Assembly (NCBI GenBank): GCA_020848055.1
Contig: JADLBB010000227.1
Coordinates: 1 to 45,080, forward strand
DNA: 45,080 nt
From: Chloroflexota bacterium
GTDB taxonomy: Bacteria; Chloroflexota; Limnocylindria; QHBO01
Reading direction: 5' to 3'
The translations under genes were made by a program, and so were the position numbers. The notes under the pieces are model-generated. The model had not been told where the DNA came from and did no database searches. It saw only the letters and a list, made by a program, of their open reading frames with translations. Below, one piece after another: positions 1-25,197 of the stretch. Every line of letters begins with the position of its first letter. Positions within the stretch are counted from its first letter, which is position 1.

Positions 1-188
1 CCGACCGCAACCCGCAGCAGGTCGGCAGCATCGGCCGGGGAGCGTCGCAGCCTGGACGCGATCTCGACGACCGTGCCCTCCCCGACGGGCCGGCGCGTGG
101 CCAGCACCTCGGCCGGCTCCACGCGGTGCCCCACCTCGACCAGGGGCGTCGAGCCCGGAGGGATGCGGAGGCGATGTGGGGTGCTCAT
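1..188 (-). CDS. hypothetical protein, first 62 codons only (continues past window start)
   Basis: ATG at 188..186 overlaps the TGA (187..185) of the upstream GlmL-like gene (ATGA). The frame stays open to position 1. My translation is [47 protein letters not shown]... It is absent from the ORF track because it is truncated. No family recognised. Confidence 0.4.
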   Translation of the reverse strand, partial: MSTPHRLRIPPGSTPLVEVGHRVEPAEVLATRRPVGEGTVVEIASRLRRSPADAADLLRVAV

Positions 189-1822
189 GCCGGTCGCTCC
201 GAGCCCCGCGACAGCGCCTCCGCCCAGGCTGCGAGCACGGCCCGCCGATCCGCGGCCCGACGCGGCATGGCGATCGGAACGCCGCGCGCGTCCAGCATCA
301 GGCCGACGGTCCCCCCGGTGACCGATGCGACGATCCGATCCGCGCGCCGCGCGTTGCCCAGGTTGACTCCGGGCCAGAGCTCGATGGTCACCTCCGCCTC
401 CACTCCACGTCCCAGCGGCACGACCTGGAGTTGGCCGCTGCGGACGCTGACGGGTGGCGGGGTGGGCCATCCGGTGCGGTCCACCGTCACCCGCATCGCG
501 ACCTGTCCCGGCTGCGCTCCACGACAGACGATCGAGGTGCCGAGCGGCACCAGAAGGTCGTCGGCCACCAGCGCCAGGCCCTCCCGCAGTTCATCGTCAT
601 CGGTCAGCGATCCAAGCGGGCCGAGAAGCGAGGCCGCGTCGATGGCCAGCTGCGTCACCCCCAGCGGACGAACCCCGTCCAGCAGCATGCCCGCCGCCTG
701 GGCCGCCGTGGGCGCCGCGGCGATCGTGCGCCCGCAGCCGATCAGCAGGTCCAGTTGGCCCGGCGGGGCGTCCTCGACCAGCCCGGCCAGCTGCAGCCGG
801 GCCGCCGCCTGGGTCATCGCCAGCTCCTCGGGCTGCTCGGGCAACGTGGCCGGATGGGCGCGCAGGCCCTGGAGCAGATCGGCCGCACTCGCCTCGTCCA
901 CGACACCCTCCACGGCCCGCGCCACGCGCGCGGCCGCCCCCGGCAGCGTTGCAGCGCCGGCCAGTCCGCCCTCGGCGGACACCATGACGGCGGTGTTCCC
1001 GTCCGCGCCGGCAGTGACCCGCAGCGACGAGCGGGCGCCCAGGTCCACGGCCATGACGGTGAGGCCGCCCATCGCCGCCAGCATGCCGGTCGCCCGCGGC
1101 AGGGCGACCGGCCCCAGGCCCGCCTCCTCGTCTCCGCCACCGCCCGCCAGTTCACGCCACAGGGCGCGCAAGTGCTCGCGCAGGGCGTCCGAGGCGTCGA
1201 CACGGGCATCGGGCCTTGGGTTGGCGACAGCGGTGGTCGCCCCCGCCTCGAACATGGCCATCACCTCGTCGGCCAGCCGCCCGGTGCCCGCCCACACGAC
1301 CGGCGCGGATCCGGGCCGCCTTGTCGCGGCCACCAGCGCGGCGACCTCGAGCGCCCGCGGCGTGGCGCCTGAATCGAAGCCGCCCACCACCAGCCAGGCA
1401 TCGGCCTCGGTCGACTCGAGAGCCGTCAGGCGGTCGGCGAGGGACCGCCCGTCGTCGAGGGTCACCACGCTGCCGACCTGCCAGCCGGCCGCCTCGGCCG
1501 CGCGACGAGCGGCGTTGCCGGATATCTCCCTCGACACGGCCGCCAGCGCCAGGCGTCCCGGCCGTCGCGCGGTGTGGCACTCGATCCGTCGAGCGTCCGT
1601 CAGCAGCCTGTCCCAGTGGCCGGCCAGCCGCGGGTCACCCACGGCTTCGAGTCGCTCGACGATGGCGCGGCGCAGCTCATCCCCGCCCCATGCCGTCGGC
1701 TGCGCGGCGTGGGCGATGACGCGCCAGCGACCTGCGACGCGACCGATGACCGACGCCTTGGCCCAGGCCGAACCGATGTCCAGCAGCAGCGCCAGCTCGG
1801 CGCCCGGCAGTGGCTCGCTCAC
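185..1822 (-). CDS. GlmL/MutL-like (glutamate mutase L family) ASKHA-fold ATPase-like protein
   Basis: Track ORF 185..2278 trimmed to the GTG at 1822..1820, which overlaps the TGA of the upstream gene (GTGA). Two phosphate-loop-like motifs are present ([13 protein letters not shown] and [11 protein letters not shown]), plus LVVGGFDSG and a C-terminal [15 protein letters not shown]. This layout resembles the GlmL/MutL family as I recall it. Family assignment is from memory, not a search. Confidence 0.6.
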
Positions 1823-2451
1823 CGTCCGATACCCGCGACGTCGCCGACCAGGAAGGCGATCCGATCGATCAGCAGGACGAGACGCGCATACAGCAGGTAC
1901 CCGAGCCAACCCCCGATGCCCGCCACCATGAGCCACCGACCGGCGCTCGTCGCGACCAGTGAGGCGCGGCCGCGCGGAACGCCGTGCAGGAACCCGACCA
2001 GCACCAGCACCGTGATGGCGGCCGATACGACGGCCGCCAGCGTGACGCCGAAGGGCTCGCCACCGGCGACGACGGTTGCGGCGGCCTGGGGCAGCAGCGT
2101 CCCGACCAGGGCGCCTCCCAGGCCAAAGGCCGCGAGCGAGCCGACCATGATCGAGACCGGCACGGCCGCCAAGGCGCGGGGCAGCCACGGACTCAAGGCG
2201 GTGATCGCCACCATGGCCAGCCCGATCCACAGCTCGGGGCGCCCGGCCGGATCGGCGATCAGCGGAGTGACCAGCCACGGCACGACGACCTCGCGGACGG
2301 CGATGAGCACCAGGTAACCGGTCAGCAGCCCGGCGAACAGGTGCTGGGTCCAGCCGAAGACGCGCCGCTCGCCGAGCAGCCCGCCCAGCACCGCGACGGT
2401 GGCGAGGGCCGCAATCGCGGTGGCCGAAGCATCGGTGGCCAGGCCGTTCAT
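1819..2451 (-). CDS. polytopic integral membrane protein, unknown function
   Basis: 210 aa, almost entirely hydrophobic Gly/Ala/Leu/Val-rich segments (about 6 predicted TM). ATG 2451..2449 overlaps the TGA of the upstream gene (ATGA). GC3 very high. Confidence 0.7.
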   Translation of the reverse strand: MNGLATDASATAIAALATVAVLGGLLGERRVFGWTQHLFAGLLTGYLVLIAVREVVVPWLVTPLIADPAGRPELWIGLAMVAITALSPWLPRALAAVPVSIMVGSLAAFGLGGALVGTLLPQAAATVVAGGEPFGVTLAAVVSAAITVLVLVGFLHGVPRGRASLVATSAGRWLMVAGIGGWLGYLLYARLVLLIDRIAFLVGDVAGIGR

Positions 2452-3269
2452 CGTCGCGCCGTCGGTCGCAGCAGGCGCCGGGCTGGCCCGCCGGCCAGGA
2501 GCGCCGACGCCAACCAGACGGCCGCGACCAACAGCCCCGCGGCGATGGCGGCCGGCGATGGGCCCGCGCGCTCGGCCAGCGCCGGGAAGGATCCTGCCGG
2601 GGTTCGCTCGCGGAAGGCCGCGCCCTGTCCGGGCGTCGTCAGCAGCGCGGCCAGCTGGCCGCTTGCCCGGTAGGGCTCGACCTCGGGCAACAGCACCGTG
2701 GGGGTGACGGCCACGATCTGCAGGCCCGCAGCGCGCGGCGCCACCTGCTCGACCCAGCTGCGCGGTCCGAGGTCGTTGCCCCCGACCACGACGGCGAGGT
2801 CCGTTCCATCCAGCTCATCGAGTCCGGGCGGCCCGGCGGCCGGCCGCTGACCGCTGATCGCGCCGGCCAGGCTTACCAGCGCGGCCTCGGCTCCCGGGAT
2901 GAAGCCGAGGTCGGTGACGGAGCCGCGCGGGGCGCCCAGCCTATCGAGCCTGGCCATCTCGGCGACTGCCAGGGCCCGGCCCTCCGGCGTCATGCTGACG
3001 AACGAGAGCCCGGCGCCGCGATCCAGCAGGTCGGCGACGAGCGTCCGCACCGTGGGTCGCAGCTCCGGATAGGTCCCCAGGTCGGGATCGAAACCGACGA
3101 GCACGGCCGGGTCGGCGGGAAGCCGGTCGAGGACCTCGATCAGCCGCCCAGCGGGCGCCGGGTCGGAGCCGGCGATGCGCAGGCCCAGGTTCGGCCCGAC
3201 GGCGACGACCAGCGCGAGCAGGCCAACCACCGCCAGCGGCAGGCCGAACCGCGCGAGGCGCTCACTCAT
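2448..3269 (-). CDS. membrane-anchored protein (N- and C-terminal TM segments flanking a ~220 aa soluble domain), unknown function
   Basis: Track ORF 2448..3305. I prefer the ATG at 3269 (MSERLARFGLPLAVVGLLALVV...), which gives an 8-nt overlap with the upstream stop. A TTG at 3305 is the alternative. C-terminal TM is AAIAAGLLVAAVWLASALLAGG. Confidence 0.65.
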   Translation of the reverse strand: MSERLARFGLPLAVVGLLALVVAVGPNLGLRIAGSDPAPAGRLIEVLDRLPADPAVLVGFDPDLGTYPELRPTVRTLVADLLDRGAGLSFVSMTPEGRALAVAEMARLDRLGAPRGSVTDLGFIPGAEAALVSLAGAISGQRPAAGPPGLDELDGTDLAVVVGGNDLGPRSWVEQVAPRAAGLQIVAVTPTVLLPEVEPYRASGQLAALLTTPGQGAAFRERTPAGSFPALAERAGPSPAAIAAGLLVAAVWLASALLAGGPARRLLRPTARR

Positions 3270-3879
3270 CAGCCGGGCCGATGCCGAACATGGTGCGGGT
3301 GGCAAGGATGGCGGCGGTGATGGCGATGCCGATCAGGATCCCTCGGAAGACGCCGGCGATCGGTACCGACAGTGTCCAGGAGGCCACGCCCGACAGGGCC
3401 GTGCCCAGCGGGCCGCCGATCGGCAGCAGGGCCACGACCAGGACGAGCGCCGCCGCGACCAGTACCAGGCCCTCCCGCCCCCCGCGGATGGCCGATCGCC
3501 GCGCCGCCGACAGGGTGGCCAGGAACAGCAGGCCGAACAGGGTCGCTCCGATGGGTGCGATGAGCGCCGCCACGATCCAGCCGACCGCCGGATCTGCCGC
3601 CCCGGCCGAGCCGGGACGCAGGCCGGCCACCAGGACCGCTGCCATCCCGAGCAGCACGGCAAGGGCACCGACCGGGTCCCCGCGCCGGCGCCACAGGTCG
3701 AGGCCGCGGCGCACAGCGAGGGTCGTGCCGGTGGCAATCGCCGCGCCGGCCGCGACCGCGATGACCGCGGCGACCGCGACGCCGGCCAGATCGCCCAGCG
3801 CCGGGTTGACGACCAGCAGGTCGGCGAACAGCAGCAGGCCGACCGCGATGACCAGCGCCGGGATGGTGGCTCGCCTCAC
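3262..3879 (-). CDS. polytopic integral membrane protein, unknown function
   Basis: 205 aa, 5-6 hydrophobic segments. GTG 3879..3877 overlaps the TGA 3878..3876 of the upstream gene (GTGA). Confidence 0.7.
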   Translation of the reverse strand: MRRATIPALVIAVGLLLFADLLVVNPALGDLAGVAVAAVIAVAAGAAIATGTTLAVRRGLDLWRRRGDPVGALAVLLGMAAVLVAGLRPGSAGAADPAVGWIVAALIAPIGATLFGLLFLATLSAARRSAIRGGREGLVLVAAALVLVVALLPIGGPLGTALSGVASWTLSVPIAGVFRGILIGIAITAAILATRTMFGIGPADE

Positions 3880-4754
3880 CGGCCGCCCAACCCCGCCAGC
3901 AGGCCGTCCGGATGGATGATCCCGGCCAGCGCCAGTGCGCTGCCGATCGCGATGGCCACCACCGCCAGGACGATCAGGCGGTTCGCCGCCACGGCGCTGG
4001 TGCGCTCGGTCGCATCGGACTGAAGGTCGGCGGCGGCGCCGAACAGCTCGGGCCCGATCAGCGCGCCTCCCCCTGCAAGCAGCGCCGCCGCGGCCTGCGA
4101 CGGCTCCGGCGTTCCAGCCGTCAGGGCTGTGCCGGACTCGCCGCGCAGGCCCTCGAAGCCCAGCGTGGCCTCCTCGCGGCTGTTCCCGAGCGCGAATGCC
4201 GCGGCCGGTCGCGCGCGGGCCGTCATGACCAGTCCGGCGCTGGGCCCCCGGCCCTCGCCGACGACGACGACTCGCGACCGGCTCGTGCGCTCGCGGGTCG
4301 CGGTCCGGTCATGCGCCGACTCGATGGTGGTCGCGGCCGCGATGGCGGCCAGCGGATCGTTGACGAGCACGCGGACCGGCACTCCGCTGCGGGCCGCCGC
4401 GCGCGCCACGTGGCCGAGCAGCCCCATGGCGGCCAGGGTCTGGAGCCGCCCGAACGCATCGGTCGAGCGCGCCAGGCCGGCCGTGCCGAGGCTGAAGACC
4501 GCGTCGGTGCCGGCCTCTGCGGCCAGGGCCATGGCGCGGCCGACTCCGGCCAGGCCGCCAGGGTCCGACGTCACCCAGCGCGTCACCGGTCGTGCCACCA
4601 GCTGCAGGAAGACGAGCAGGACCCCGAGCGCGACCAGGGTCGTGCCGATCCCCAACCGGAATGAGGACACGCCCAGCGCGTCGCCGACGAACGAGAGCAG
4701 CCCGCCGACCAGGTCAGCCGGGGATGGCATCGGGAGTCCCATCTCGTGCCGCAT
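3876..4754 (-). CDS. membrane-anchored protein (TM - ~200 aa soluble domain - TM), unknown function
   Basis: 292 aa. ATG at 4754 is preceded by GAGG, then the 6 nt CCATGG, then ATG. N-terminal TM is IGTTLVALGVLLVFLQLV and C-terminal TM is LIVLAVVAIAIGSALALAGII. Overlaps the upstream small ORF by 41 nt. Confidence 0.65.
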   Translation of the reverse strand: MRHEMGLPMPSPADLVGGLLSFVGDALGVSSFRLGIGTTLVALGVLLVFLQLVARPVTRWVTSDPGGLAGVGRAMALAAEAGTDAVFSLGTAGLARSTDAFGRLQTLAAMGLLGHVARAAARSGVPVRVLVNDPLAAIAAATTIESAHDRTATRERTSRSRVVVVGEGRGPSAGLVMTARARPAAAFALGNSREEATLGFEGLRGESGTALTAGTPEPSQAAAALLAGGGALIGPELFGAAADLQSDATERTSAVAANRLIVLAVVAIAIGSALALAGIIHPDGLLAGLGGR

Positions 4755-4983
4755 CCATGGCCTCGACCAGGCGGTCCAGCCCGTCTGGCTCGTCGACCAC
4801 GGCCCGCAGGTCGTCCCCGGGCGGGCCCGCGCCCATGCTCAGCCATGGGCCGATGGCCGCCCCGACGTCAGCGATCAGCGGACCCAGCGGCCGGTGGGCG
4901 TCGACCAGCAGGCGGGCGGGGGTGGTGAGTCGGTGACGTTCGATCCGGGCGGCGAGGCGCCTTGCCGCCTCGGGCGCCGTCAC
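4714..4983 (-). CDS. small hypothetical protein (89 aa)
   Basis: GTG 4983..4981 overlaps the TGA 4982..4980 of the macro-domain gene (GTGA). High GC3. No recognised motif. Confidence 0.5.
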   Translation of the reverse strand: MTAPEAARRLAARIERHRLTTPARLLVDAHRPLGPLIADVGAAIGPWLSMGAGPPGDDLRAVVDEPDGLDRLVEAMDAARDGTPDAIPG

Positions 4984-5510
4984 CGCACGCCGGCCCCGGT
5001 ATCGGAGGCCCTGACCGCTTCTCGCAGCGCGCTGACCTCGGTGGCCTGCATCACCGCCAGCACGACCGACTCGATCGGCGTGTCGACGGCTCCAGCGCGA
5101 AGGGCCGGCACCACGACTGCGGCCGCCTCGTCGGGCGTGAACGCGCCGGTCTCGGTGCCCAGCAGCGCCATGGCGATCCTGCGCAGTTGCAGCGGCTCGG
5201 CGAACGCCAGCGCCGAGCGGACGGCCTGGGCCAGGACTCCGGGGTCGGCCACGCGATCGTGGCCCACCGCCACCGCATGGATCACGTAGGGCGCGGGTAG
5301 CATGCCGCCGGTGGTCACGACCGCCGAGCCGGGTGGAACCGGGGCCTGGTCGATGGCGGCTCGTTCGATCTCGATGCCTCCCCGGCGCTTCACCGCAGCC
5401 GCGGGGCCGGCCGTCATGAACAGTGACTCCGACCCGGCGATCACGATCGCGTCTACCTCGAGCTGCGCGATATCGCCCTGCCAGACGTCCATCTCGATTC
5501 GATCTGCCAT
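4980..5510 (-). CDS. macro-domain-like protein (degenerate ADP-ribose-binding fold)
   Basis: Track ORF 4980..5654 trimmed to the ATG at 5510..5508, with GGAGC upstream. The sequence MADRIEMDVWQGDIAQLEVDAIVIAGSESL...VVTTGG...YVIHAV...LLGTETGAF follows the macro-domain pattern (GDIT..DAIVNAAN...GGGV...VIHAVGP...ISTG). The NAAN and GGGVD motifs are replaced by IAGS and TAGPAAAV. Confidence 0.6.
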   Translation of the reverse strand: MADRIEMDVWQGDIAQLEVDAIVIAGSESLFMTAGPAAAVKRRGGIEIERAAIDQAPVPPGSAVVTTGGMLPAPYVIHAVAVGHDRVADPGVLAQAVRSALAFAEPLQLRRIAMALLGTETGAFTPDEAAAVVVPALRAGAVDTPIESVVLAVMQATEVSALREAVRASDTGAGVR

Positions 5511-5541
5511 TGCTCCGTGCTCGCTCCGCGACCGCCGAACG

Positions 5542-6663
5542 TCAACCGCTCCCGAGGTGGAGGCGCGGGAGCCTGCGACGAAGGGCGGTCGTGACCTCGT
5601 AATTGATCGTTCGACGCTCCTCGGCGACCTCCTCGGCGCTGATCCGAGCTCCACCCTGCTCGCCGATGAGCACGAATTCGTCGCTGTAGGTTACACCACC
5701 GATTCCACCGACATCCACGGTCAGCCCGTCCATGCTGACCGCGCCGACGATCGGGGCGCGTTGTCCGCGCACCAGGACCCACCCGTTGTTGGCGTGAGCG
5801 CGCGGCCAGCCATCACCGTAGCCGATGCCCAGGGTGGCGATGCGGGTCGCGCTCGCGGCCCGGAACCGCAGCCCGTAGCCGATGCCCTCGCCAGCGGCCA
5901 GGTCGAACAGCCGCAGCGGCAGTGCCTTGAGCGACAGTGCCGGGCGCAGCCCGATGTCGCGGTCGGCCGCCCAGTCGGGCAGCAGCCCGTACAGCGCTAT
6001 CCCCGGGCGAATCGCATCGGCAAAGCCGATGCCGCCGGCCAGCAGGCCGCCGGTCGCGCTGACGTGCACCAGGCCGGGATCGATGCCGGCGGAGCGCATC
6101 GAGTCGAGGACGCGCGCCAGGCGCAGCAACTGGACCTCGGTGTGCGCGTCGTCCTCGCCCGGCACGGCGAGATGGCTCATCGTGCCGGCCAGCCGCAGGC
6201 TCCGGCTGCGAGCGATCCTCGCCGCCAGCATCAACGCTCCGGCCGGATCGATGCCCTGCCGGCCCAGGCCGGTGTCCACCTTCAGATGGACGCCGATGGT
6301 CCGGCCGGTCGCCTCCAGCGCTTCGATGCTGCGCTCGTCGTATACGAGTGGCTCGAGATCGAGGTCCGCCACGGCCGGCGCCTCGTCGGGCCCGATGCCC
6401 CACAACACGATGATCCGCGCGCCGATCCCGGCGCTCCTCAGCCGCTGCGCCTCGTCGATGGTCGCCACCGCCAGAATGCCCACCCCACCCGCCGTCAGCG
6501 TGCGCGCCACCTCCAAGTCCCCGTGCCCGTAGGCGTTGGCCTTGACGACGCCGATGACCTCGGCGCCGGGCGCCAGGCCCCTGACTGCTCGCAGGTTCGA
6601 GCGAATCGCGTCGTGATCGATCTCGATCCAGGCGCGGTGCGGGCTGCGGGTGGCGACGGTCAC
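5542..6663 (-). CDS. alr: alanine racemase
   Basis: Track ORF 5542..7272 trimmed to the GTG at 6663..6661, which overlaps the nnrD TGA (GTGA). PLP-lysine motif VVKANAYGHG present. Also AVATIDEA, HLKVDTGLGRQG and the YGDGWPR region. Confidence 0.93.
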   Translation of the reverse strand: MTVATRSPHRAWIEIDHDAIRSNLRAVRGLAPGAEVIGVVKANAYGHGDLEVARTLTAGGVGILAVATIDEAQRLRSAGIGARIIVLWGIGPDEAPAVADLDLEPLVYDERSIEALEATGRTIGVHLKVDTGLGRQGIDPAGALMLAARIARSRSLRLAGTMSHLAVPGEDDAHTEVQLLRLARVLDSMRSAGIDPGLVHVSATGGLLAGGIGFADAIRPGIALYGLLPDWAADRDIGLRPALSLKALPLRLFDLAAGEGIGYGLRFRAASATRIATLGIGYGDGWPRAHANNGWVLVRGQRAPIVGAVSMDGLTVDVGGIGGVTYSDEFVLIGEQGGARISAEEVAEERRTINYEVTTALRRRLPRLHLGSG

Positions 6664-7556
6664 GCGCGCTCTCCACGCAGGTGCGCGATCGCCTCCGGCA
6701 GCAGGTGGGCGATGTCGCGGGCCATCACCCCGGTCGTGCCGATGCGCTCGGCTGCCAGCAGGCCGGCGGCCCCGTGGACGGCAACGCCGCAGGCCGCCGC
6801 CGCGAACGGCTCGACGCCGGCGGCAACGAATGCGCCGATCGCGCCGGCCAGCACGTCGCCGCTGCCGGCAGTGGCGAGGGCGGGCGTGGCCACGTCCGAC
6901 CGCAGCACCTCGCCCCCGGGCTCGGCGACGACGCTGTGAGCGCCCTTGAGCACGACCGTCTGGTCCCAGCGCAGGGCCGCCGCCGCGACAGCGTCGGCAC
7001 GCGCCGCATCGTCGTCGGCCGGCGGGGCCGCCTCGCCACTGAGTCGGGCGAACTCGCCCGGATGCGGCGTCAGCACCAGTGACGCCCCCAGTCCCTGCCA
7101 CCAGCGCGCCTGGCCGGACAGCGCGTTGAGGCCGTCGGCATCGACCACCACCGTGCCCCCCATGGCCGTGATCAGCTGCCTGGCGCGCCTCTGGGTCGCA
7201 GGCTGCGACCCGAGCCCCGGACCGATGACCATGGCGTCGAATCCGGGGGCGGCCGTGGCGATCCGCCGCCACCCGCCCGGCGAGATGAGGCCTGGCGCCT
7301 CCTCGTCGAGCGCCATCCAGGTCAGCTCGGGAACGGCGCCGGCCGTCCGGATGGCGACCGACTCGGCGGTGGCCACGCAGACCAATCCGGCTCCGGCCCG
7401 CATCGCGCCAAGGCCGGCCAGCACGGCCGCGCCCGGATAGTCGATGGATCCAGCGATGATCAGCAGCTTGCCGAACGTCCCCTTGTGGGCGCGCTCGGGC
7501 CGCGCCGGCAGGTTGCGCGCCACCCAGCGCTGCGTGATCGAGCGCGCCGCCGTCAT
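6660..7556 (-). CDS. nnrD: ADP-dependent NAD(P)H-hydrate dehydratase (YjeF C-terminal domain only)
   Basis: 298 aa. Motifs HKGTFGKLLIIAGS, VVDADGLN, LTPHPGEFARL, GSGDVLAG. No N-terminal epimerase domain. Confidence 0.88.
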   Translation of the reverse strand: MTAARSITQRWVARNLPARPERAHKGTFGKLLIIAGSIDYPGAAVLAGLGAMRAGAGLVCVATAESVAIRTAGAVPELTWMALDEEAPGLISPGGWRRIATAAPGFDAMVIGPGLGSQPATQRRARQLITAMGGTVVVDADGLNALSGQARWWQGLGASLVLTPHPGEFARLSGEAAPPADDDAARADAVAAAALRWDQTVVLKGAHSVVAEPGGEVLRSDVATPALATAGSGDVLAGAIGAFVAAGVEPFAAAACGVAVHGAAGLLAAERIGTTGVMARDIAHLLPEAIAHLRGERA

Positions 7557-7569
7557 GGCCGGGACGGCG

Positions 7570-7947
7570 TCATGCTGACTCCCGATGCGCCACCGCGACC
7601 GCCATCGCCATGTGGCGCTCGTGAGAGATCGACACGCTCACCTCGCCGAGGCCCATCGCCTCGGCTCGCCGCGCCGCGCGCCCGTGCAGGTTCACCTGCG
7701 GTGCTCCGGCCCGGTTGGGCAGGATCTCGATCTCGCGCCAGCCAACGCCGCGCACGCCGAGGCCGAGGACCTTGCTGATCGCCTCCTTGGCCGCCCAGCG
7801 GCCGGCAAGGCGTTCGACGCGGCCGCCCACGTAGCGGCGCTCGGCGTCGGTCAGGACGCGGTGGCGGAAGCGATCCGGAAAGCGCTCCAGCACGCCCACG
7901 ATGCGATCGATGTCGATCAGGTCTATCCCGATCTCGTGGCGGCTCAT
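7570..7947 (-). CDS. acpS: holo-[acyl-carrier-protein] synthase
   Basis: 125 aa. IGIDLIDIDRI..., AAKEAISKVLG, and SISHERHMAMAVAV at the C-terminus. Confidence 0.92.
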   Translation of the reverse strand: MSRHEIGIDLIDIDRIVGVLERFPDRFRHRVLTDAERRYVGGRVERLAGRWAAKEAISKVLGLGVRGVGWREIEILPNRAGAPQVNLHGRAARRAEAMGLGEVSVSISHERHMAMAVAVAHRESA

Positions 7948-7965
7948 TGACGGCGATGGTCCGGC

Positions 7966-9795
<1,830 letters not shown>

Positions 9796-13383: not shown

Positions 13384-13776
13384 TCAGCGCTTGGTGTACT
13401 GCGGCGCCTTGCGCGCGCGCTTGAGCCCGTACTTCTTGCGCTCCTTGGCCCGCGGATCGCGGGTCAGCAGGCCCGCCTCGCGCAGGGCGCCGCGGGCGTC
13501 CGGCAGGGCGCTGAGCAGCGCACGGGCAATGCCGTGGCGAATCGCGCCGACCTGCCCGGAGACGCCGCCACCGGCGACCAGGACGCTGGCCGAGTAGCGA
13601 CCCTCGGTGTCGGTGACGCGGAACGGCAGGACCAGGGCCGAGCGGCCCGCGGCTCCTCCGAAGTACTCGTCGGAGGGCTTGCCATTGACGATGATGCTGC
13701 CGTCGCCCGGCAGCAGCCGGACGCGTGCCACGGCGGTCTTGCGACGGCCGGTGCCGTAGACGTAATTCGTGCTCAT
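13384..13776 (-). CDS. rpsI: 30S ribosomal protein S9
   Basis: 130 aa. [12 protein letters not shown]... and C-terminal ...RKAPQYTKR. Confidence 0.97.
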
Positions 13777-13784
13777 GTGCTCTG

Positions 13785-14213
13785 TTACAGCTCCACTGTG
13801 ATCGGCTGCTGGGCCTGGTGCGGATGCTCGGAGCCGCGGTAGACCTTCAGCTTGCGGAACATGGCCCGGCCGAGCCGGTTCTGGGGCAGCATGCCCTTGA
13901 CCGCGCGCTCAATGACCAGCTCGGGCTTGCGCTCCAGCAGCGTCCCGAGGCTCTCCTCGCGCAGTCCGCCGGGATAGTTCGAATGACGGAAGTAGGACTT
14001 CTGGCGCAGCTTGTCGCCAGTCACGCGGATGCTGCCCGCGTTGAGGACCACGACGTGGTCCCCGGTATCGAGGTGGGGCGAGTAGGTCGGCTTGTGCTTG
14101 CCCTCGAGCAGGGTGGCGATGCGCGTCGCCAGCCGGCCGAGAGTCTGGTCGGTCGCATCAACGACCCACCAGCCGCGCTCGATCTCGCTCGCCTTGACGG
14201 CGTAGGTCTTCAC
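13785..14213 (-). CDS. rplM: 50S ribosomal protein L13
   Basis: 142 aa. [16 protein letters not shown]...[15 protein letters not shown]. Confidence 0.97.
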
Positions 14214-14225
14214 TTTGCCTGCTCT

Positions 14226-15023
14226 CTAACTGCTTGGTTGCGATTTTCGGTTGATCTGGCTGACCTGCCGGTACACGACGCGCTCGAGCACGAGGCCCCT
14301 GGCCGGCACCGCGCGCCCATGCAGCGCACGTCGCCTGGGATCGAGCACCTCGTCCACCTCCTCCGGCGCCAGCCGCCCCCGGCCGACCTCCAACAGGAGG
14401 GCGACCAGGCTGCGCACCATGCGTCGCAGGAATGCGTTGGCCGTGACCCGGATCTCGACGAGGTCTCCGCGCCGCGTCACCCGCACCTCGGCGAGGTGCC
14501 GAACCGTCCGGTCGCGCGCATGGCTGCCGAGGGCCGCGAAGTCGCGCTCCCCGACCATGCGTGCCGCGGCGGCCTGCATGGCCGCCACGTCGAGACGATC
14601 GTCGATCTCGAGCGTGCGATGCCGCTCCAGCGGCTGCCTCGTGCCGTTCATTCGCACCCGGTAGCGGTACACGCGCCACAGCGCGTCCCGCCTCGGATCG
14701 AATTGCGGCCCGACGCTCCGCAGTGCGCGCACTGCCAGGTCCGATGGCAGCGCGGCGTTGAGCCGTCGCTGCAGCTCTGGCAGGCCGCCGCCGCGCGGGA
14801 TGACCCGCGGGACGCGGAATGCCGCGACCTGGCCGGTGGCGTGCACCCCGGCATCGGTACGCCCGGCGAGACGGACGCGCGTCCGCTCGCCGATCAGCCT
14901 GTTAAGGGCCGTCTCCAGCTCCCCCTGCACGGTCCTGGCATTCGGCTGGACCTGGGAGCCGGCGAAGGCCGACCCGTCGTACTCGATGGTCGCCCGGACG
15001 CTTCGCTGCGCGCGGGTGGCCAT
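14226..15023 (-). CDS. truA: tRNA pseudouridine(38-40) synthase
   Basis: Track ORF 14226..15491 trimmed to the ATG at 15023..15021 (MATRAQRSVRATIEYDGSAFAGSQVQ...). Catalytic RTDAGVHA motif present. Confidence 0.92.
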   Translation of the reverse strand: MATRAQRSVRATIEYDGSAFAGSQVQPNARTVQGELETALNRLIGERTRVRLAGRTDAGVHATGQVAAFRVPRVIPRGGGLPELQRRLNAALPSDLAVRALRSVGPQFDPRRDALWRVYRYRVRMNGTRQPLERHRTLEIDDRLDVAAMQAAAARMVGERDFAALGSHARDRTVRHLAEVRVTRRGDLVEIRVTANAFLRRMVRSLVALLLEVGRGRLAPEEVDEVLDPRRRALHGRAVPARGLVLERVVYRQVSQINRKSQPSS

Positions 15024-15061
15024 CGGGTGTGATCGGTGTTCGATTGGCGAGCCCGTCCGAA

Positions 15062-15415
15062 TCAGACGAGCTCGATCTGGACCATGGACGCGGCGTCGCC
15101 GGCGCGCTGGCCGATCTTGACGATCCGCGTGAAGCCCGAGGCCCGGTCGGCGTACTTGCCGGCCAGCTCGCCCATGAGCTTCTCGACGATGAGCGGCTCG
15201 TGAGGCATCCGGCCGACCAGCTGACGGCGAGCGTGCAGGTCGCCGCGCTTGGCGAGGGTGATCATGCCGTCCACCAGGCCGCGCACCTCCTTGGCCTTGG
15301 CCTCGGTCGTGCGCACCCGCTCGTAGCGAATGACCGCGACGGCCAGGTTGCCCAACATCGCCGTGCGATGGTCGGTGGTTCGGCCGAGCTTCCGTCCGGA
15401 TGTGCGGTGCGTCAC
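15062..15415 (-). CDS. rplQ: 50S ribosomal protein L17
   Basis: 117 aa. GRKLGRTTDHRTAMLGNL...TTEAKAKE. Confidence 0.97.
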   Translation of the reverse strand: MTHRTSGRKLGRTTDHRTAMLGNLAVAVIRYERVRTTEAKAKEVRGLVDGMITLAKRGDLHARRQLVGRMPHEPLIVEKLMGELAGKYADRASGFTRIVKIGQRAGDAASMVQIELV

Positions 15416-15420
15416 CTCGA

Positions 15421-16464
15421 TCAGGCCTCGCGGTCGAGTTCGGCCGCCGCGGCCTCGTCGAGCTCGGCCGATGCGGGCAGGTCGGACTCATCGGTGCTCA
15501 TGGCAGCCGACTCGGGACTGATGAAGCCGCGCAGCGCAAGGCGCTCCTTGAGCTCATCGAGGCTCTTCTGGCCGAAGTTGCGCATGCGCAGGAACTCGTC
15601 GTCCGATAGCGACAGCACCTGGCCGACCTTGGTGATCGAGTTGCGCTTCAGGCTGTTGTACGCCCGCATCGGCAGGTCGAGCTCCTCGATCGGCGCGTCG
15701 AGCATGTTCGCCGATGGCGATGCCGCCTCGTCCGCCGCGCCAGCGGAGGCGGGGCGACCGATCTCGGCGAAGCGACCGAACTCGCGCACCAGGATGTCCG
15801 CGGCCTGGCTGAGGGCGGCCTGCGCGGTGGTGGTGCCATCGGTCTCGATCTCGAGCGTCAGCTTGTCGAAGTTGGTCATCTGGCCCACGCGCGTCTTCTC
15901 CACCCCGTAGTTGACGCGACGGACCGGCGAGAAGATGGCATCGACCGGGATGACGCCGATCGGCATCTCCTCGGTGTGCTCGGCCGGTCGGTAACCCATG
16001 CCCGTCTCGACGGTCAGGTCCATCTCGATGGAGCCCGAATCGGAGTCGAGCGTCAGCAGGACGAGGTCCGGGTTGATGATCTCGACGTCGGCGGACTCAC
16101 CGATGTCCGCCGCGGTGACCGGGCCGGCACCGCGCTTGACGAGCTTGAGCGTCAGCGCGTGATGGGCGAAGGAACGCAGGCGCAACTTCTTGACGTTGAG
16201 CACGATCTGGGTAACGTCCTCCTTGACGTTGGGGATCGTGCTGAACTCGTGGAAGATGCCCGCGACCTGGATGTTGGTCACGGCGGCGCCCTCCAGCGAG
16301 CTGAGCAGGACGCGGCGCAGGGCGTTCCCGAGCGTCACGCCATATCCCTCCTGGAGCGGCGTCACCTCGAAATGGCTGAGCGTTCCCTCGGCGCGCACCT
16401 CTTCGATGCGCGGCTCCGGAATGGGCTGCTCGTGCTGCTGTGGTGTTGTCTCGAGATCGATCAT
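15421..16464 (-). CDS. rpoA: DNA-directed RNA polymerase subunit alpha
   Basis: Track ORF trimmed to the ATG at 16464 (MIDLETTPQQ...). GNALRRVLLSS motif, plus C-terminal domain LDLPMRAYNSLKRNSITKVGQV. Confidence 0.96.
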   Translation of the reverse strand: MIDLETTPQQHEQPIPEPRIEEVRAEGTLSHFEVTPLQEGYGVTLGNALRRVLLSSLEGAAVTNIQVAGIFHEFSTIPNVKEDVTQIVLNVKKLRLRSFAHHALTLKLVKRGAGPVTAADIGESADVEIINPDLVLLTLDSDSGSIEMDLTVETGMGYRPAEHTEEMPIGVIPVDAIFSPVRRVNYGVEKTRVGQMTNFDKLTLEIETDGTTTAQAALSQAADILVREFGRFAEIGRPASAGAADEAASPSANMLDAPIEELDLPMRAYNSLKRNSITKVGQVLSLSDDEFLRMRNFGQKSLDELKERLALRGFISPESAAMSTDESDLPASAELDEAAAAELDREA

Positions 16465-21709: not shown

Positions 21710-21933
21710 TGCTTCTCCTCGTTGGTGGCCGGCGCATCCGACTGCTCGGCGACCTCGACCAGGAATGCGACGCGACGGATCATGCCGCGCGTCATGGGCG
21801 TGTCGGCCACCTCGACCGACTGGTTGAGCCGATGCAGCCCGAGCGCGCGGATCGTGCCCCGCGCACCCGCGCGATGACCGATGGTGGAGCGGACCCAGGT
21901 GACCTTGATGGTGCGCGGCGCGTCAGCGGTCAC
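21706..21933 (-). CDS. rpmD: 50S ribosomal protein L30
   Basis: 75 aa. GTG start at 21933, preceded by GGAGG with 5-nt spacing. [12 protein letters not shown].... Confidence 0.93.
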
Positions 21934-22513
21934 GGCGACCTCCCGGGCCGGCGTTCATCGGCTCGCGTCGCTCCGGGACCTCGTGCGGCGTGCGCGCCAG
22001 CTCCGCGCCGCGCTTGCCGAGCAGTTGCTCGGCGCTTCGTCCACGGAGCGCGGCGATCGCATCGGCCGAGCGCAGTGCGGCGAGGCACTCGATGGTGGCG
22101 CGCACCACGTTGATCGGGTTGGTAGAACCCTGGGCCTTGCTCAGCAGGTCCCGGATGCCGGCCACCTCGACCACCGAGCGGACCGAGCCACCGGCGATGA
22201 CGCCGGTACCGGCGCTGGCCGGCTTGAGCATGACCCGCGCCGCGCCGTAATGGCGATGGACCTCGTGCGGGATGGTGGATCCAACCAGCGGCACCTTGAT
22301 CAGGTGCTTCTTGGCGTCCTCGACGCCCTTGCGAATCGCCTCGGGCACCTCGCCGGCCTTGCCGATGCCGGCCCCGACCGTGCCATTCCCGTCGCCAACG
22401 ACCACGACCGCGCTGAAGCTGAAGCGGCGCCCGCCCTGGACGACCTTCGCGACGCGGTTGATCTGGACGACCTTCTCCTCCAGGTTGAGCTTGGACGGAT
22501 CGATCCGTGCCAT
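21923..22513 (-). CDS. rpsE: 30S ribosomal protein S5 (C-terminal ~30 aa tail)
   Basis: 196 aa. [42 protein letters not shown]. Confidence 0.97.
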
Positions 22514-22531
22514 GTGCGTGTCTCCTCTCGC

Positions 22532-22885
22532 CTACAGGTTGAGGCCGCCCTCGCGGGCGCCCTCAGCGAGCGAGCGGACCCGCCCGTGGTACTGGTAGCC
22601 ACCCCGATCGAGCACGACGGCCGTCACGCCCGCCGCCCTGGCCCGCTCGGCGATGGCAAGGCCCACGGACCGCGCGACGTCCACCTTGGTCGCCCCGTCG
22701 AGCCCGCTCTCGCGGCTCGATGCGGCGGCCAGCGTCCGGCCGGTCTGGTCGTCGATGACCTGGGCATAGATGAACTTCGCGCTGCGGAAGACCGACAGGC
22801 GCGGGCGCTCCGCGCTGCCGCTGACGCGCAGGCGCAGGCGCTCGTGTCGCTTGCGACGCAGGGCGTCGCGTGATGGGTTCGTCAT
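22532..22885 (-). CDS. rplR: 50S ribosomal protein L18
   Basis: Track ORF trimmed to the ATG at 22885..22883 ([18 protein letters not shown]...[18 protein letters not shown]). 117 aa. Confidence 0.96.
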
Positions 22886-22892
22886 CGGTGCA

Positions 22893-23441
22893 TCAGCCTC
22901 CGCCGACCTTGCCGGCCTTGCCCGCCTTGCGCAGGATCTTCTCGCCGGCGTAGCGAATGCCCTTGCCCTTGTACGGCTCGGGCTTGCGGCGGGAACGGAT
23001 GTCCGCGGCCACTTGGCCGACCAGCTCCTTGTCGGCGCCGAACACGCCGATGCGGGTCGGGTTCTCCACGCGGAACTCGATTCCGGCCGGAGGATCGATC
23101 TCCACCGGGTGCGAGTAGCCCAGAGCCAGGACCAGCTTGCTGCCCTGGAGCGCAGCACGGTAGCCGACCCCGCTGATCTCCAGGTTCCTGGTGAAGCCGG
23201 TCGTCACCCCGACGACCATGTTGTTGACCAGCGTGCGGGTCAGGCCGTGCAGCGAACGATGGCGCGGCTCGTCCGATGGCCGGACCACGCGCAGTTGGCC
23301 GTCCTCGCGCTCCAGGGCCATGTCGGCGTGCAGGTCGCGCTCGAGCGTGCCGAGCGGGCCGCGGACCGTCAGGCGGTTGCCCTGGTGGCTCACCTCCACT
23401 CCGGTCGGGAGCGGAATCGGCATGCGTCCGATTCGAGACAT
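22893..23441 (-). CDS. rplF: 50S ribosomal protein L6
   Basis: 182 aa. [17 protein letters not shown].... Confidence 0.97.
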
Positions 23442-23453
23442 GTCAGTTGCTCC

Positions 23454-23852
23454 TTACCAGACGTAGCACAGGACCTCGCCACCGAGGTTCTGCTTCCGTG
23501 CATCGCTGCCGGTCATGATCCCGTGGGAGGTGGACAGGATGGCCAGGCCCAGGCCGCCGAGGACGCGCGGGATCTCCGTCTTGCGCGCGTACACCCGCAG
23601 TCCTGGCTTGCTGATTCGCTTCAGGCCGGACACGACCGGCGTCCGCCCCTCGACGTACTTGAGGCGCAGGGTCAGCGCCTCTCCGACGCCATCGGGCGTC
23701 GCAGAGAAGCTCTCGATGAAGCCCTCCTCGGCCAGGATCCGCGCGATCTCGCGCTTGATCCGCGACGAAGGCAGCGTCAGTTCCCTGTGCCGGGCCATGC
23801 TGGCGTTGCGGATGCGCGTCAGCATGTCGGCGATCGGATCGGTCACGTTCAT
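23454..23852 (-). CDS. rpsH: 30S ribosomal protein S8
   Basis: 132 aa. [13 protein letters not shown].... Confidence 0.97.
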
Positions 23853-23949
23853 GTGGTCTTCGTTCTTCTCCTCGGCGGTGGTTCGCCCCGCGGGGCGCCT
23901 GCCGCTGATGATGGCCGCGACGACGCGGCCGTTGGTCGGTGAGCGGTGC

Positions 23950-24135
23950 CTACCAGCTCGACTTGGTCACCCCCGGCAGCTGGCCCAGCAGGGCGCGCTC
24001 CCGGAAGCAGATGCGGCACATCGCGAAGCGACGCATGTAGCCGCGTGGACGGCCGCACACCTGGCAGCGGTTGTGGTCGCGTACCTCGAAGCGCGCCCCG
24101 CGCTTCGCCTTGGCGATCATCGACTTCTTTGCCAC
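23950..24135 (-). CDS. rpsN: 30S ribosomal protein S14, type Z (zinc-binding, 61 aa)
   Basis: [12 protein letters not shown]... with [20 protein letters not shown] (CxxC...CxxC). Confidence 0.97.
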
Positions 24136-24145
24136 GTGGCTCTCC

Positions 24146-24865
24146 CTAGTTCTTCTGGAACGGCATGCCGAGGAGCTCCAGGAGCTTGCGCCCCTCCTCG
24201 TCGGTGCGTGCCGTGGTCACGATGCTGATCTCGAGGCCGCGGAGGCGATCGATCTTGTCGTAATCGATCTCGGGGTAGACCAACTGCTCCCGCAGGCCGA
24301 GGCTGAAGTTGCCGCGGCCGTCGAACGAGCGGGTCGGTATGCCGCGGAAGTCCCGGATGCGGGGCAGTGCCAGCGCCATGGTCCGCTCCAGGAAGTCGTA
24401 CATGCGCTGGCCGCGCAGCGTCACCTTGGCGCCGATCGGCATCCCGGTGCGCAGGCGGAACTGCGCGATGCTGCGCGTGGCACGCGTCACGATCGGCTTC
24501 TGGCCGGTGATGGTGGCCAGATCGCCGACGGCGGCGTCGAGCGCCTTGGCGTTGGCGATCGCCTCTCCGAGGCCGATGTTGACCACGACCTTGCTTACAC
24601 GCGGGATCTGCATCGGGTTGCTGTAGTCGAACTCGCGCTGCAACGCCGGGACGACCTCGTCACGGTACCGGCGTCGCAACCCACCGACCTCGGGGGCCGG
24701 ATGCCGGCCCGGTCCACCGGTGCGGCCATTGGCCTTCTCCGCCCTGCCGCGTGCGCCCTTGCGGGCTGGTGCGGCCTCCTTGGCGGCGGCCGTTACCGTC
24801 GCCTCGGCGGGGGTCCGTGCCGCACTGCTGCGCCGGCGCGCCGGCTTGGTCTCGTCTGGGCTCAC
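24146..24865 (-). CDS. rplE: 50S ribosomal protein L5 (long form, ~62 aa basic N-terminal extension; alternative TTG start at 24679)
   Basis: Conserved core is [37 protein letters not shown].... GTG 24865..24863 overlaps the rplX TGA (GTGA). An in-frame TTG at 24679, preceded by GAGG, would give a canonical 177 aa protein. Confidence 0.9.
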
Positions 24866-25197
24866 TTGCCGCTCACCTCGATCTGCTCGCCGCAGCGCCG
24901 GCAGACGCGCGTGCTGCGCGCGTGCTCCCCCTCGAGCCGGCCGTGCCCGACGCGGGTCGGCCGGTTGCAGCTGGGGCAGACGACCTGCACGTTGCTGATG
25001 TGCAGCGGGACCGGGATGTCCAGGATCCCGGCCGACTGCGTTCGCGACCGCGCCTTCTGGTGGCGCTTGGCCATGTTGATGCCACCGACCACGACCCCGT
25101 AGCCGCGCTTGGTCTTCTCGACCCGGTCCACGGTCCCACGCTTGCCGGCGTCCTTGCCGGTCAGCACCAGCACCGTGTCTCCCTTGCGGACGTCCAT
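24862..25197 (-). CDS. rplX: 50S ribosomal protein L24 (KOW plus C-terminal Cys4 zinc ribbon)
   Basis: Track ORF trimmed to the ATG at 25197..25195 ([22 protein letters not shown]). 111 aa with CPSC...CRRC. Confidence 0.96.

Follow-up and report, generated by a model that had tools for sequence, protein, structure and literature searches.

The window analysed here, a 45,080-nucleotide stretch of a contig from a Chloroflexota bacterium of the class Limnocylindria (GenBank JADLBB010000227.1, positions 1 to 45,080), carries in its first 5,510 nucleotides eight consecutive minus-strand genes. They encode a macro-domain protein, a small soluble protein, four membrane proteins, a GlmL-like protein of the ASKHA fold and the start of a partner protein that we call p348. 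Comparison with loci from other phyla makes it very probable that seven of these genes are a fast-diverged and rearranged Limnocylindria copy of an uncharacterised module of seven genes that is widespread among bacteria. Gene neighbourhoods show the module to comprise two sub-units: a predicted membrane quartet (the DUF6754 protein and three proteins designated mA, mB and mC) and a predicted soluble set (the ASKHA protein, p348 or its counterpart p373, and the small protein sB). We regard the module as a system of a new kind, with a divergent member in the window.

The wider module was recovered through its DUF6754 protein. An exhaustive search with the window protein returned 262 cluster representatives: 13 are of the Limnocylindria type, and the remainder form a second type, with Pfam-model scores of ~380 bits and, as a rule, long N-terminal extensions with FN3 or beta-propeller domains. 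In other lineages DUF6754 bears a signal peptide or FN3 and beta-propeller ectodomains. A metagenome scan with second-type DUF6754 matched more than 600 stretches, from which 80 loci with GC contents of 0.33-0.72 were fetched. Clustering of the open reading frames (ORFs) in these loci found solely the module families to be recurrent, with varying flanks. Locus L082 encodes, in order, proteins of 147 and 148 residues, MutL (605 residues, the counterpart of the GlmL-like protein), a 373-residue protein (p373), DUF6754 (956 residues) and proteins of 278, 298 and 259 residues; L081, L085 (from a Planctomycetota metagenome-assembled genome, MAG) and L086 are arranged in the same way. L168 has the quartet first, followed by MutL and a 379-residue gene product, which is the order of the window. 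All seven families occur together in these five loci and in many of L087-L166. Since the soluble pair comes first in L081, L082, L085 and L086 and the quartet comes first in L168 and in the window, the differing gene order argues for selection on co-occurrence, not inherited synteny. Source names put the module in Chloroflexota, Planctomycetota and Vulcanimicrobiota.

Profile-profile alignments with hhalign, supported by blastp, relate seven of the window families to the module families one-to-one. The GlmL-like protein aligns with MutL over its full length (probability 100%, E=8e-46) and p348 with p373 (100%, E=1e-39). The window DUF6754 protein pairs with that of the module (99.3%, E=5e-20), and the remaining membrane proteins, named m205, m273 and m210 by their lengths, pair with mA (99.1%, E=6e-19), mB (99.1%, E=1e-18) and mC (99.1%, E=5e-19), respectively. 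The small protein aligns with sB (96%, E=4e-9) and is also matched by L083_88 in blastp (E=2e-10). The preliminary description of this DNA, which was made from the letters alone, had recognised no family beyond the macro-like and GlmL-like proteins. This holds for five proteins, which fall below every Pfam and NCBIfam cut-off, but not for one membrane protein, which is the Pfam DUF6754 member.

The genes mA, mB and mC follow DUF6754 in 27 of the 29 loci with enough downstream sequence, and a MutL and p373 pair was present at a distance of no more than 10 kb in 13 of the 23 loci with enough upstream sequence. Ten loci have two or three copies of DUF6754. Gene calls delineate complete tandem quartets in L103 (9980-17661), L104 (5224-18112), L108 (5959-16935), L123 (5999-16860) and L143 (9611-16041), which in L104, L108 and L143 stand beside a single MutL and p373 pair; three DUF6754 copies are also present in L112, L125, L126, L152 and L162. 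A pyruvate phosphate dikinase (PPDK) gene and an ORF of 105-119 residues lie 3' of the triplicated quartets in five related loci (for example L104:18871-20814, L108:17847-20687 and L123:17609-20602), and molybdenum-cofactor genes surround L153; both were judged to be lineage synteny and not module. We had suspected by eye that DUF6754 and mB, and likewise mA and mC, are paralogues, an idea that was abandoned when hhalign gave probabilities below 3%. A plasmid collection contained no wider-module-type DUF6754 relative. A full-text literature search returned no paper naming DUF6754 or PF13941 and none describing the gene set; searches for GlmL together with actin-like or membrane proteins, ASKHA together with Planctomycetes, and 8xMP returned nothing relevant, and a Planctopirus limnophila essentiality paper with its supplements mentions solely the DNA-repair MutL.

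All eight ORFs of the window block are present between 5510 and 1, as the preliminary description had it. Their GC content is 0.83-0.90 at third codon positions and 0.51-0.59 at second positions in a window of 70-75% GC, the pattern expected of genes in a high-GC genome, and they are real genes. In order along the minus strand they encode the macro-domain protein (176 residues, 4980-5510), the sB homologue (89 residues, 4714-4983), the DUF6754 protein (284 residues, 3876-4730), the mA homologue m205 (205 residues, 3262-3879), the mB homologue m273 (273 residues, 2448-3269), the mC homologue m210 (210 residues, 1819-2451), the GlmL-like protein (545 residues, 185-1822) and the first 62 codons of p348 (1-188). 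Four contigs, L001-L004, are 100% identical to the window across all 5,510 nucleotides and extend beyond its end, and the complete p348 gene of 348 codons lies in one of them (L001:12264-13310). An identical copy of the m210 protein occurs on 23 contigs.

The genes had been described as chained by start/stop overlaps. Six junctions were read in the sequence as reported: GTGA at 4980-4983 and 3876-3879, 8 nucleotides at 3262-3269, ATGA at 2448-2451, GTGA at 1819-1822 and ATGA at 185-188. The seventh, a 41-nucleotide overlap between the small ORF and the DUF6754 gene, depends on a start at 4754 that yields a 292-residue protein. Homologues are nearly all 283-284 residues long, covering 97% of the 292-residue reading, and one gene call on the identical contig L002 gives 284 residues, so that translation most likely starts at the ATG at 4730 and the overlap is 17 nucleotides. 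Apart from this correction the overlaps are not annotation artefacts: a transmembrane (TM) helix or an invariant motif begins no more than about 15 residues from each overlapping start, and the true starts therefore cannot lie much further downstream. Counted from gene coordinates, all seven internal junctions of the block overlap, compared with 6 of 15 flanking junctions.

Neighbourhood conservation within Candidatus Limnocylindria was assessed by a scan with the GlmL-like protein, taking one genome per species, which gave 74 loci. Their labels are mostly Candidatus Limnocylindria, Chloroflexota or Chloroflexia, with a few from other phyla. The eight genes recur between alr and tsaE, with the block and its overlaps kept in ~45-60 species, and the GlmL-like gene has the same four membrane partners in ~55 Limnocylindria species, as had been asked of its relatives; in the distant lineages described above it has these partners in rearranged order. 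The junction distances, and with them the translational coupling, recur across species: -4 between macro and small ORF in 44 of 47 species, -17 between small ORF and DUF6754 in 48 of 52, -4 between DUF6754 and m205 in 44 of 57, -8 between m205 and m273 in 49 of 58, -4 between m273 and m210 in 50 of 58, -4 between m210 and the GlmL-like gene in 49 of 63, and -4 between the latter and p348 in 59 of 69. Median identities to the window proteins (49-64%) are comparable with those of the neighbouring tsaB (58%) and tsaE (67%) products, which indicates that all eight genes are under purifying selection.

Not all taxonomic labels of the MAG contigs in this set can be trusted. Limnocylindria synteny, with 55-66% identity, was seen under the labels Steroidobacteraceae, Angelobacter, Binatia, Pleomorphomonadaceae, Thermoleophilaceae and Zixibacteria (L017, L032, L046, L044, L056 and L069; also P0460 and P0509), and these loci are most likely mis-binned contigs. 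A second, divergent and partial locus with GlmL-like, p348, tsaE and tsaB genes (L080:3641-6400, 42-51% identity) was noticed on a different contig of the MAG to which L019 belongs; it may represent a paralogous stretch or a contaminant of the bin.

The GlmL-like protein is a member of Pfam MutL (PF13941; 78.4 bits against a cut-off of 27, E=6e-22), with the match confined to its N-terminal half. It shares its family and the ASKHA fold with GlmL/MutL of methylaspartate mutase and with a GlmL-related protein of ornithine degradation (PF13941, TIGR01319, NF040745, NF040744), from which the module protein differs by an extra beta-rich C-terminal region of ~120 residues. Against the NCBIfam GlmL models the window protein scores far under the cut-offs, at 38.4 bits for NF040745 (cut-off 475) and 38.8 bits for TIGR01319 (cut-off 204), with residues 12-226 aligned. 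Module MutL proteins outside Limnocylindria align end-to-end with NCBIfam GlmL (214 bits, cut-off 475), have the intact motifs DCGSTTTK, DIGGATTD and GSGGVLSHAP, and display a mean column identity of 65% across loci of GC 0.42-0.70. In the window protein D15, K22 and D260 are invariant: the Asp and Lys of phosphate-1 and the Asp of phosphate-2 are retained. Sequence and profile searches of the PDB found nothing significant for the GlmL-like protein, for p348 and p373 or for module MutL.

The AlphaFold2 (AF2) model of p348 (predicted local distance difference test score, pLDDT, 81) shows an N-terminal beta-barrel resembling a hybrid barrel, a central alpha/beta domain and a small C-terminal beta-barrel of KOW/SH3-like appearance. 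No Pfam family reaches its gathering cut-off for this protein; a similarity of its N-terminus to 'wHTH-Hsp90_Na associated' was rejected, being below the Pfam cut-off and present in 1 of 25 members. Foldseek comparisons with the PDB and BFVD gave no whole-protein match, and together with the profile searches yielded similarities at the level of domains only: Thermotoga NusG DII/KOW, the RNA polymerase hybrid domain and the C-terminal domain of 2e28. The last of these is Bacillus stearothermophilus pyruvate kinase, an enzyme with a C-terminal swivel-type domain, and it is a weak match to the central alpha/beta domain of p348.

The four membrane proteins have the layouts previously assigned to them, two being polytopic and two consisting of a soluble domain between TM helices, although the one read as 292 residues has 284. 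Together they contain ~15-16 TM helices. The DUF6754 protein matches PF20539 with 58.1 bits (cut-off 27) over model positions 17-250 of 257, and is, judged by this score and the ~380 bits of other lineages, a divergent family member. It has one TM helix on each side of a predicted alpha/beta domain, which the positive-inside rule puts in the cytoplasm. The mB homologue m273 has the opposite predicted topology: the distribution of Lys and Arg residues places both termini inside and the ~210-residue domain between its two helices outward. Sequence and profile searches found no PDB or Pfam relative of mB. The mA homologue m205 (~6 TM helices) and the mC homologue m210 (5-6 TM helices) have no consistent Pfam family even at E<=5 among 21 members, and the 89-residue small protein has no Pfam match. 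One way in which the proposal of a novel membrane complex could have failed, an assignment of these proteins to a known transporter or biosynthetic family, did not materialise in the profile hidden Markov model searches: in Pfam and NCBIfam the sole match of the membrane proteins is DUF6754.

Several loci have additions of their own. In L085 an FHA domain is fused to mA (4594-5856), in L086 a gene for a Tricorn/PD40-type beta-propeller lies inside the module (7792-8832), and in L143 the module contains genes for a SIR2_2 protein (4764-5897) and an 8xMP-like small membrane protein (7850-8257). As far as gene content can tell, the single-locus additions of SIR2-like, FHA and beta-propeller type point to variable regulatory or periplasmic accessories.

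The macro-domain protein had been proposed as an accessory member of the complex. It is a clear member of PF01661 (60.4 bits against a cut-off of 22, E=2e-16), with the Thermus protein TTHA0132 as its best PDB match (2dx6, E=4e-17), and falls far below the cut-offs of all NCBIfam equivalogs. While it shares fold and family with MacroD/TTHA0132-type macro domains, other residues take the place of the VNAAN Asn and of the GGG and GxG phosphate loops: the window protein has VIAGSES, TAGPAA and GTETGAF, and the class consensus is VV.A.ESLFMTAG.AASV and G.E.G.F, compared with canonical VNAANN..GGGVAG and GTGVG. The NAAN Asn, GGG and G-x-G-x-G loops that mark MacroD-type hydrolases of ADP-ribose or O-acetyl-ADP-ribose are therefore missing, and their replacements are conserved across the class. 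The gene is missing in L036, L037, L038, L056 and L167, and L083 is the only fetched distant locus in which a macro gene was detected. That locus (481-3311, 52% GC) encodes a HEPN protein, a macro protein with canonical motifs, sB, a DUF6754 protein of 287 residues with no ectodomain, and mA, and this arrangement shows that the macro linkage recurs beyond high-GC Limnocylindria. Its distribution thus marks the macro gene as a lineage-specific accessory that is not part of the core, and the preliminary reading needs revision on this point.

The reading we favour, which we hold at even chances, is a multi-subunit membrane complex that is controlled by a cytoplasmic switch made of the ASKHA protein and its partner. 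On the evidence of conserved gene content the products probably do form a physical complex; that the ASKHA/partner pair controls it is an evenly balanced proposition; and an outward, surface-directed role is suggested more tentatively. The quartet would be one stoichiometric membrane complex, and the ASKHA protein and p348 would form a nucleotide- or conformation-dependent switch in the cytoplasm. This switch would dock on the cytoplasmic DUF6754 domain and drive or gate a change on the outside of the membrane, in the mB domain. Other lineages add to this outer face the FN3 or beta-propeller ectodomains fused to DUF6754. The role could then lie in assembling, exporting or organising a component of the cell surface and not in small-solute uptake, a view we prefer because the ectodomains are of adhesion or scaffold type and the membrane proteins show no transporter likeness. 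The macro protein may act as a lineage-specific regulatory or ligand-sensing accessory. A more specific version can be offered only tentatively: that the module is an envelope machine of a class not recognised before, in which a GlmL-type actin/Hsp70-fold ATPase and its barrel, alpha/beta and KOW partner power or gate interchangeable four-subunit membrane units acting on the surface by way of FN3 or beta-propeller ectodomains and the outward mB domain, of which the Limnocylindria version has been stripped of its ectodomain and become linked to a macro protein.

Known systems provide partial parallels. PilM-PilN-PilO, FtsA, MreB-MreC-MreD and GspL are cases of ASKHA proteins docking on membrane partners, and like them the module has a cytoplasmic actin/Hsp70-fold protein whose gene accompanies those of bitopic and polytopic membrane proteins with domains exposed beyond the membrane. 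However, these families were not detected in the module by Pfam or NCBIfam, its ASKHA protein belongs to the GlmL branch, and p348 and the cytoplasmic DUF6754 domain have no counterpart in them. In the diol/glycerol dehydratase reactivases DdrAB and PduGH, an ASKHA large subunit and an alpha/beta partner form an ATP-dependent conformational switch. The module likewise pairs an ASKHA protein with a partner containing an alpha/beta domain, a likeness that is a lead, not a test; unlike the reactivases the module is membrane-linked and has no dehydratase client, and no sequence relation was detected.

Several observations weigh against the favoured reading. A deep Limnocylindria clade (L068, L069, L070, L072 and L073, ~40% identity) has only the GlmL-like gene and p348 between alr and tsaE (for example L072:8835-12621), with the membrane genes, the small ORF and the macro gene absent and no space for membrane genes there. 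Since this clade retains only that pair, the core soluble unit is the GlmL-like protein with p348. Conversely, ~40% of the distant quartets have neither MutL nor p373 inside 10 kb, so that the membrane and soluble sub-units are separable in the genome. ATP turnover by the Limnocylindria ASKHA protein is doubtful from its motifs, because glycines of two loops are lost: phosphate-2 reads DLGAR and the adenosine loop G(C/A)GR, in place of DIGGATTD and GSGG elsewhere in the module. The AF2 model of DUF6754 is of low confidence (pLDDT 55, from a shallow alignment), and its Foldseek matches, generic Rossmann folds with E>0.06, were not used. No conserved acidic or other charged residue was seen in the TM helices, and searches of Pfam and NCBIfam linked none of the four membrane proteins to a transporter family, not even by a weak but consistent match; neither a transport nor a mechanical role is thus directly indicated. 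Finally, 4-nucleotide overlaps also occur between unrelated neighbours in the same genome (nnrD/alr, tsaD/ksgA and ispE/ridA) and are thus not specific evidence for a complex. The block had been taken for one functional unit on the strength of its overlaps; a conserved unit it is, on the strong evidence of co-occurrence across lineages, but as evidence for a complex the overlaps on their own are weak.

Two alternatives to the favoured reading survive best, each of them unlikely. The first is an ASKHA-energised transporter, in which the quartet would translocate a solute, lipid or polymer and the GlmL-like protein and p348 would be a shared energiser. In ECF/ABC transporters one ATPase module can serve several membrane modules, and the module loci with one soluble pair beside two or three paralogous tandem quartets are reminiscent of this, as is a quartet of two polytopic and two bitopic subunits with ~15-16 TM helices in all; the outward domain of mB, if its predicted topology is right, could bind substrate. 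Unlike ECF/ABC systems, though, the module has no P-loop ATPase and no homology in its membrane subunits. The lack of any transporter match and of conserved charged residues in the helices counts against transport, as do the frequent quartets with no soluble pair nearby, and we know of no ASKHA-powered transporter that has been described.

The second is a serious rival for Limnocylindria in particular, with about the same standing: here the module would be a nucleotide-independent structural scaffold whose ASKHA and macro proteins have lost catalysis and ligand binding and serve solely as adaptors within a static assembly in the membrane. It would account for the loss of the Gly-rich ASKHA loops and of several wider-module motifs in the GlmL-like and DUF6754 proteins, for macro loops that are altered yet conserved class-wide, and for family scores far lower than those of other lineages (58 against ~380 bits for DUF6754, 38 against 214 bits for GlmL). 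Against it stand the invariant phosphate-1 Asp and Lys and phosphate-2 Asp, and a conservation across the class like that of housekeeping neighbours; altered loops could moreover point to a different ligand instead of the loss of one.

An anti-phage or conflict system is suggested by the macro gene at the head of the operon, by HEPN and macro genes adjoining the module in L083 and by the SIR2_2 gene within it in L143. We consider this very unlikely: none of the eight proteins has a match in PADLOC-DB 2.0 at E<=0.01, the search of the plasmid collection for wider-module DUF6754 gave no match, throughout the class the block occupies the same site among core housekeeping genes, the module is flanked elsewhere by ordinary metabolic genes, and macro, HEPN and SIR2 are each confined to one lineage or locus.

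Still less probable is a true GlmL function, that of reactivase or chaperone of a coenzyme-B12 mutase next to unrelated membrane genes. Membership in Pfam MutL and the end-to-end alignment of the non-Limnocylindria MutL with NCBIfam GlmL would favour it, but the scores of 38 and 214 bits are to be set against an equivalog cut-off of 475, genes for glutamate mutase (glmS/glmE) or another B12 aminomutase turned up nowhere in the window, L001-L006 and the 74 and 80 related loci (~160), and p348 and the quartet are the partners that the protein keeps. The annotation 'glutamate mutase L' in Chloroflexota and Planctomycetota MAGs is accordingly no indicator of B12 metabolism. Least tenable of all is a packing of unrelated genes into a long housekeeping operon, with overlaps due to high-GC compaction or mis-called starts: overlaps between unrelated neighbours and the finding of no promoter- or terminator-like site between alr and the block fit it, but it is contradicted by the co-occurrence of seven families in varied orders and unrelated contexts across phyla, and by starts fixed by N-terminal TM helices and motifs.

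Upstream of the block lie cdaA-ybbR(cdaR)-glmM-glmS-acpS-nnrD-alr, the cell-envelope precursor cluster to which the preliminary description had drawn attention. Its location is correct, but it holds no functional signal for the block, as the flanks differ in other lineages. On the contigs identical to the window, p348 is followed after a 62-nucleotide gap by tsaE-tsaB-rimI-tsaD-ksgA-ispE. A link to the tsaE-tsaB-rimI-tsaD genes, which also encode ASKHA proteins, was considered and dropped, there being no tsa genes with the module outside Limnocylindria. Plus-strand ORFs of 386-601 residues at 126-1931, 4129-5289 and 5302-6939 run antisense to real genes and were rejected as stop-poor artefacts of 75% GC; further plus-strand ORFs at 13725-15910 and 21881-25099 have no Pfam match. 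The minus strand from 43538 to 18353 encodes core housekeeping functions, with map, secY, ribosomal protein L2, tuf and fusA confirmed by Pfam; two large ORFs, of 1483 and 1159 residues, look like rpoC and rpoB, by size only. A scan of the 45 kb found no tRNA and no Rfam match, so that the surroundings of cdaA and glmS gave no sign of a c-di-AMP or glmS riboswitch.

The seven families of the module are at present nearly unannotated, with one domain of unknown function, one misleading 'glutamate mutase L' label and five proteins assigned to no family, although the module is strongly conserved and occurs in bacteria from soil, fresh water, the sea and sediment that belong to several little-studied phyla. 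Defining the module together with its two sub-units and its variant forms (fusions to ectodomains, quartets in tandem, and accessories of macro, FHA and beta-propeller type) turns a set of hypothetical proteins into a testable system. If the ASKHA protein really drives a membrane complex, the module would couple cytoplasmic nucleotide turnover to the cell surface in a new way. On the more specific version offered above it would also be the first membrane system driven by an ASKHA protein that does not belong to the pilus, divisome or elongasome families, and the function of the GlmL family would extend beyond the reactivation of B12 enzymes.

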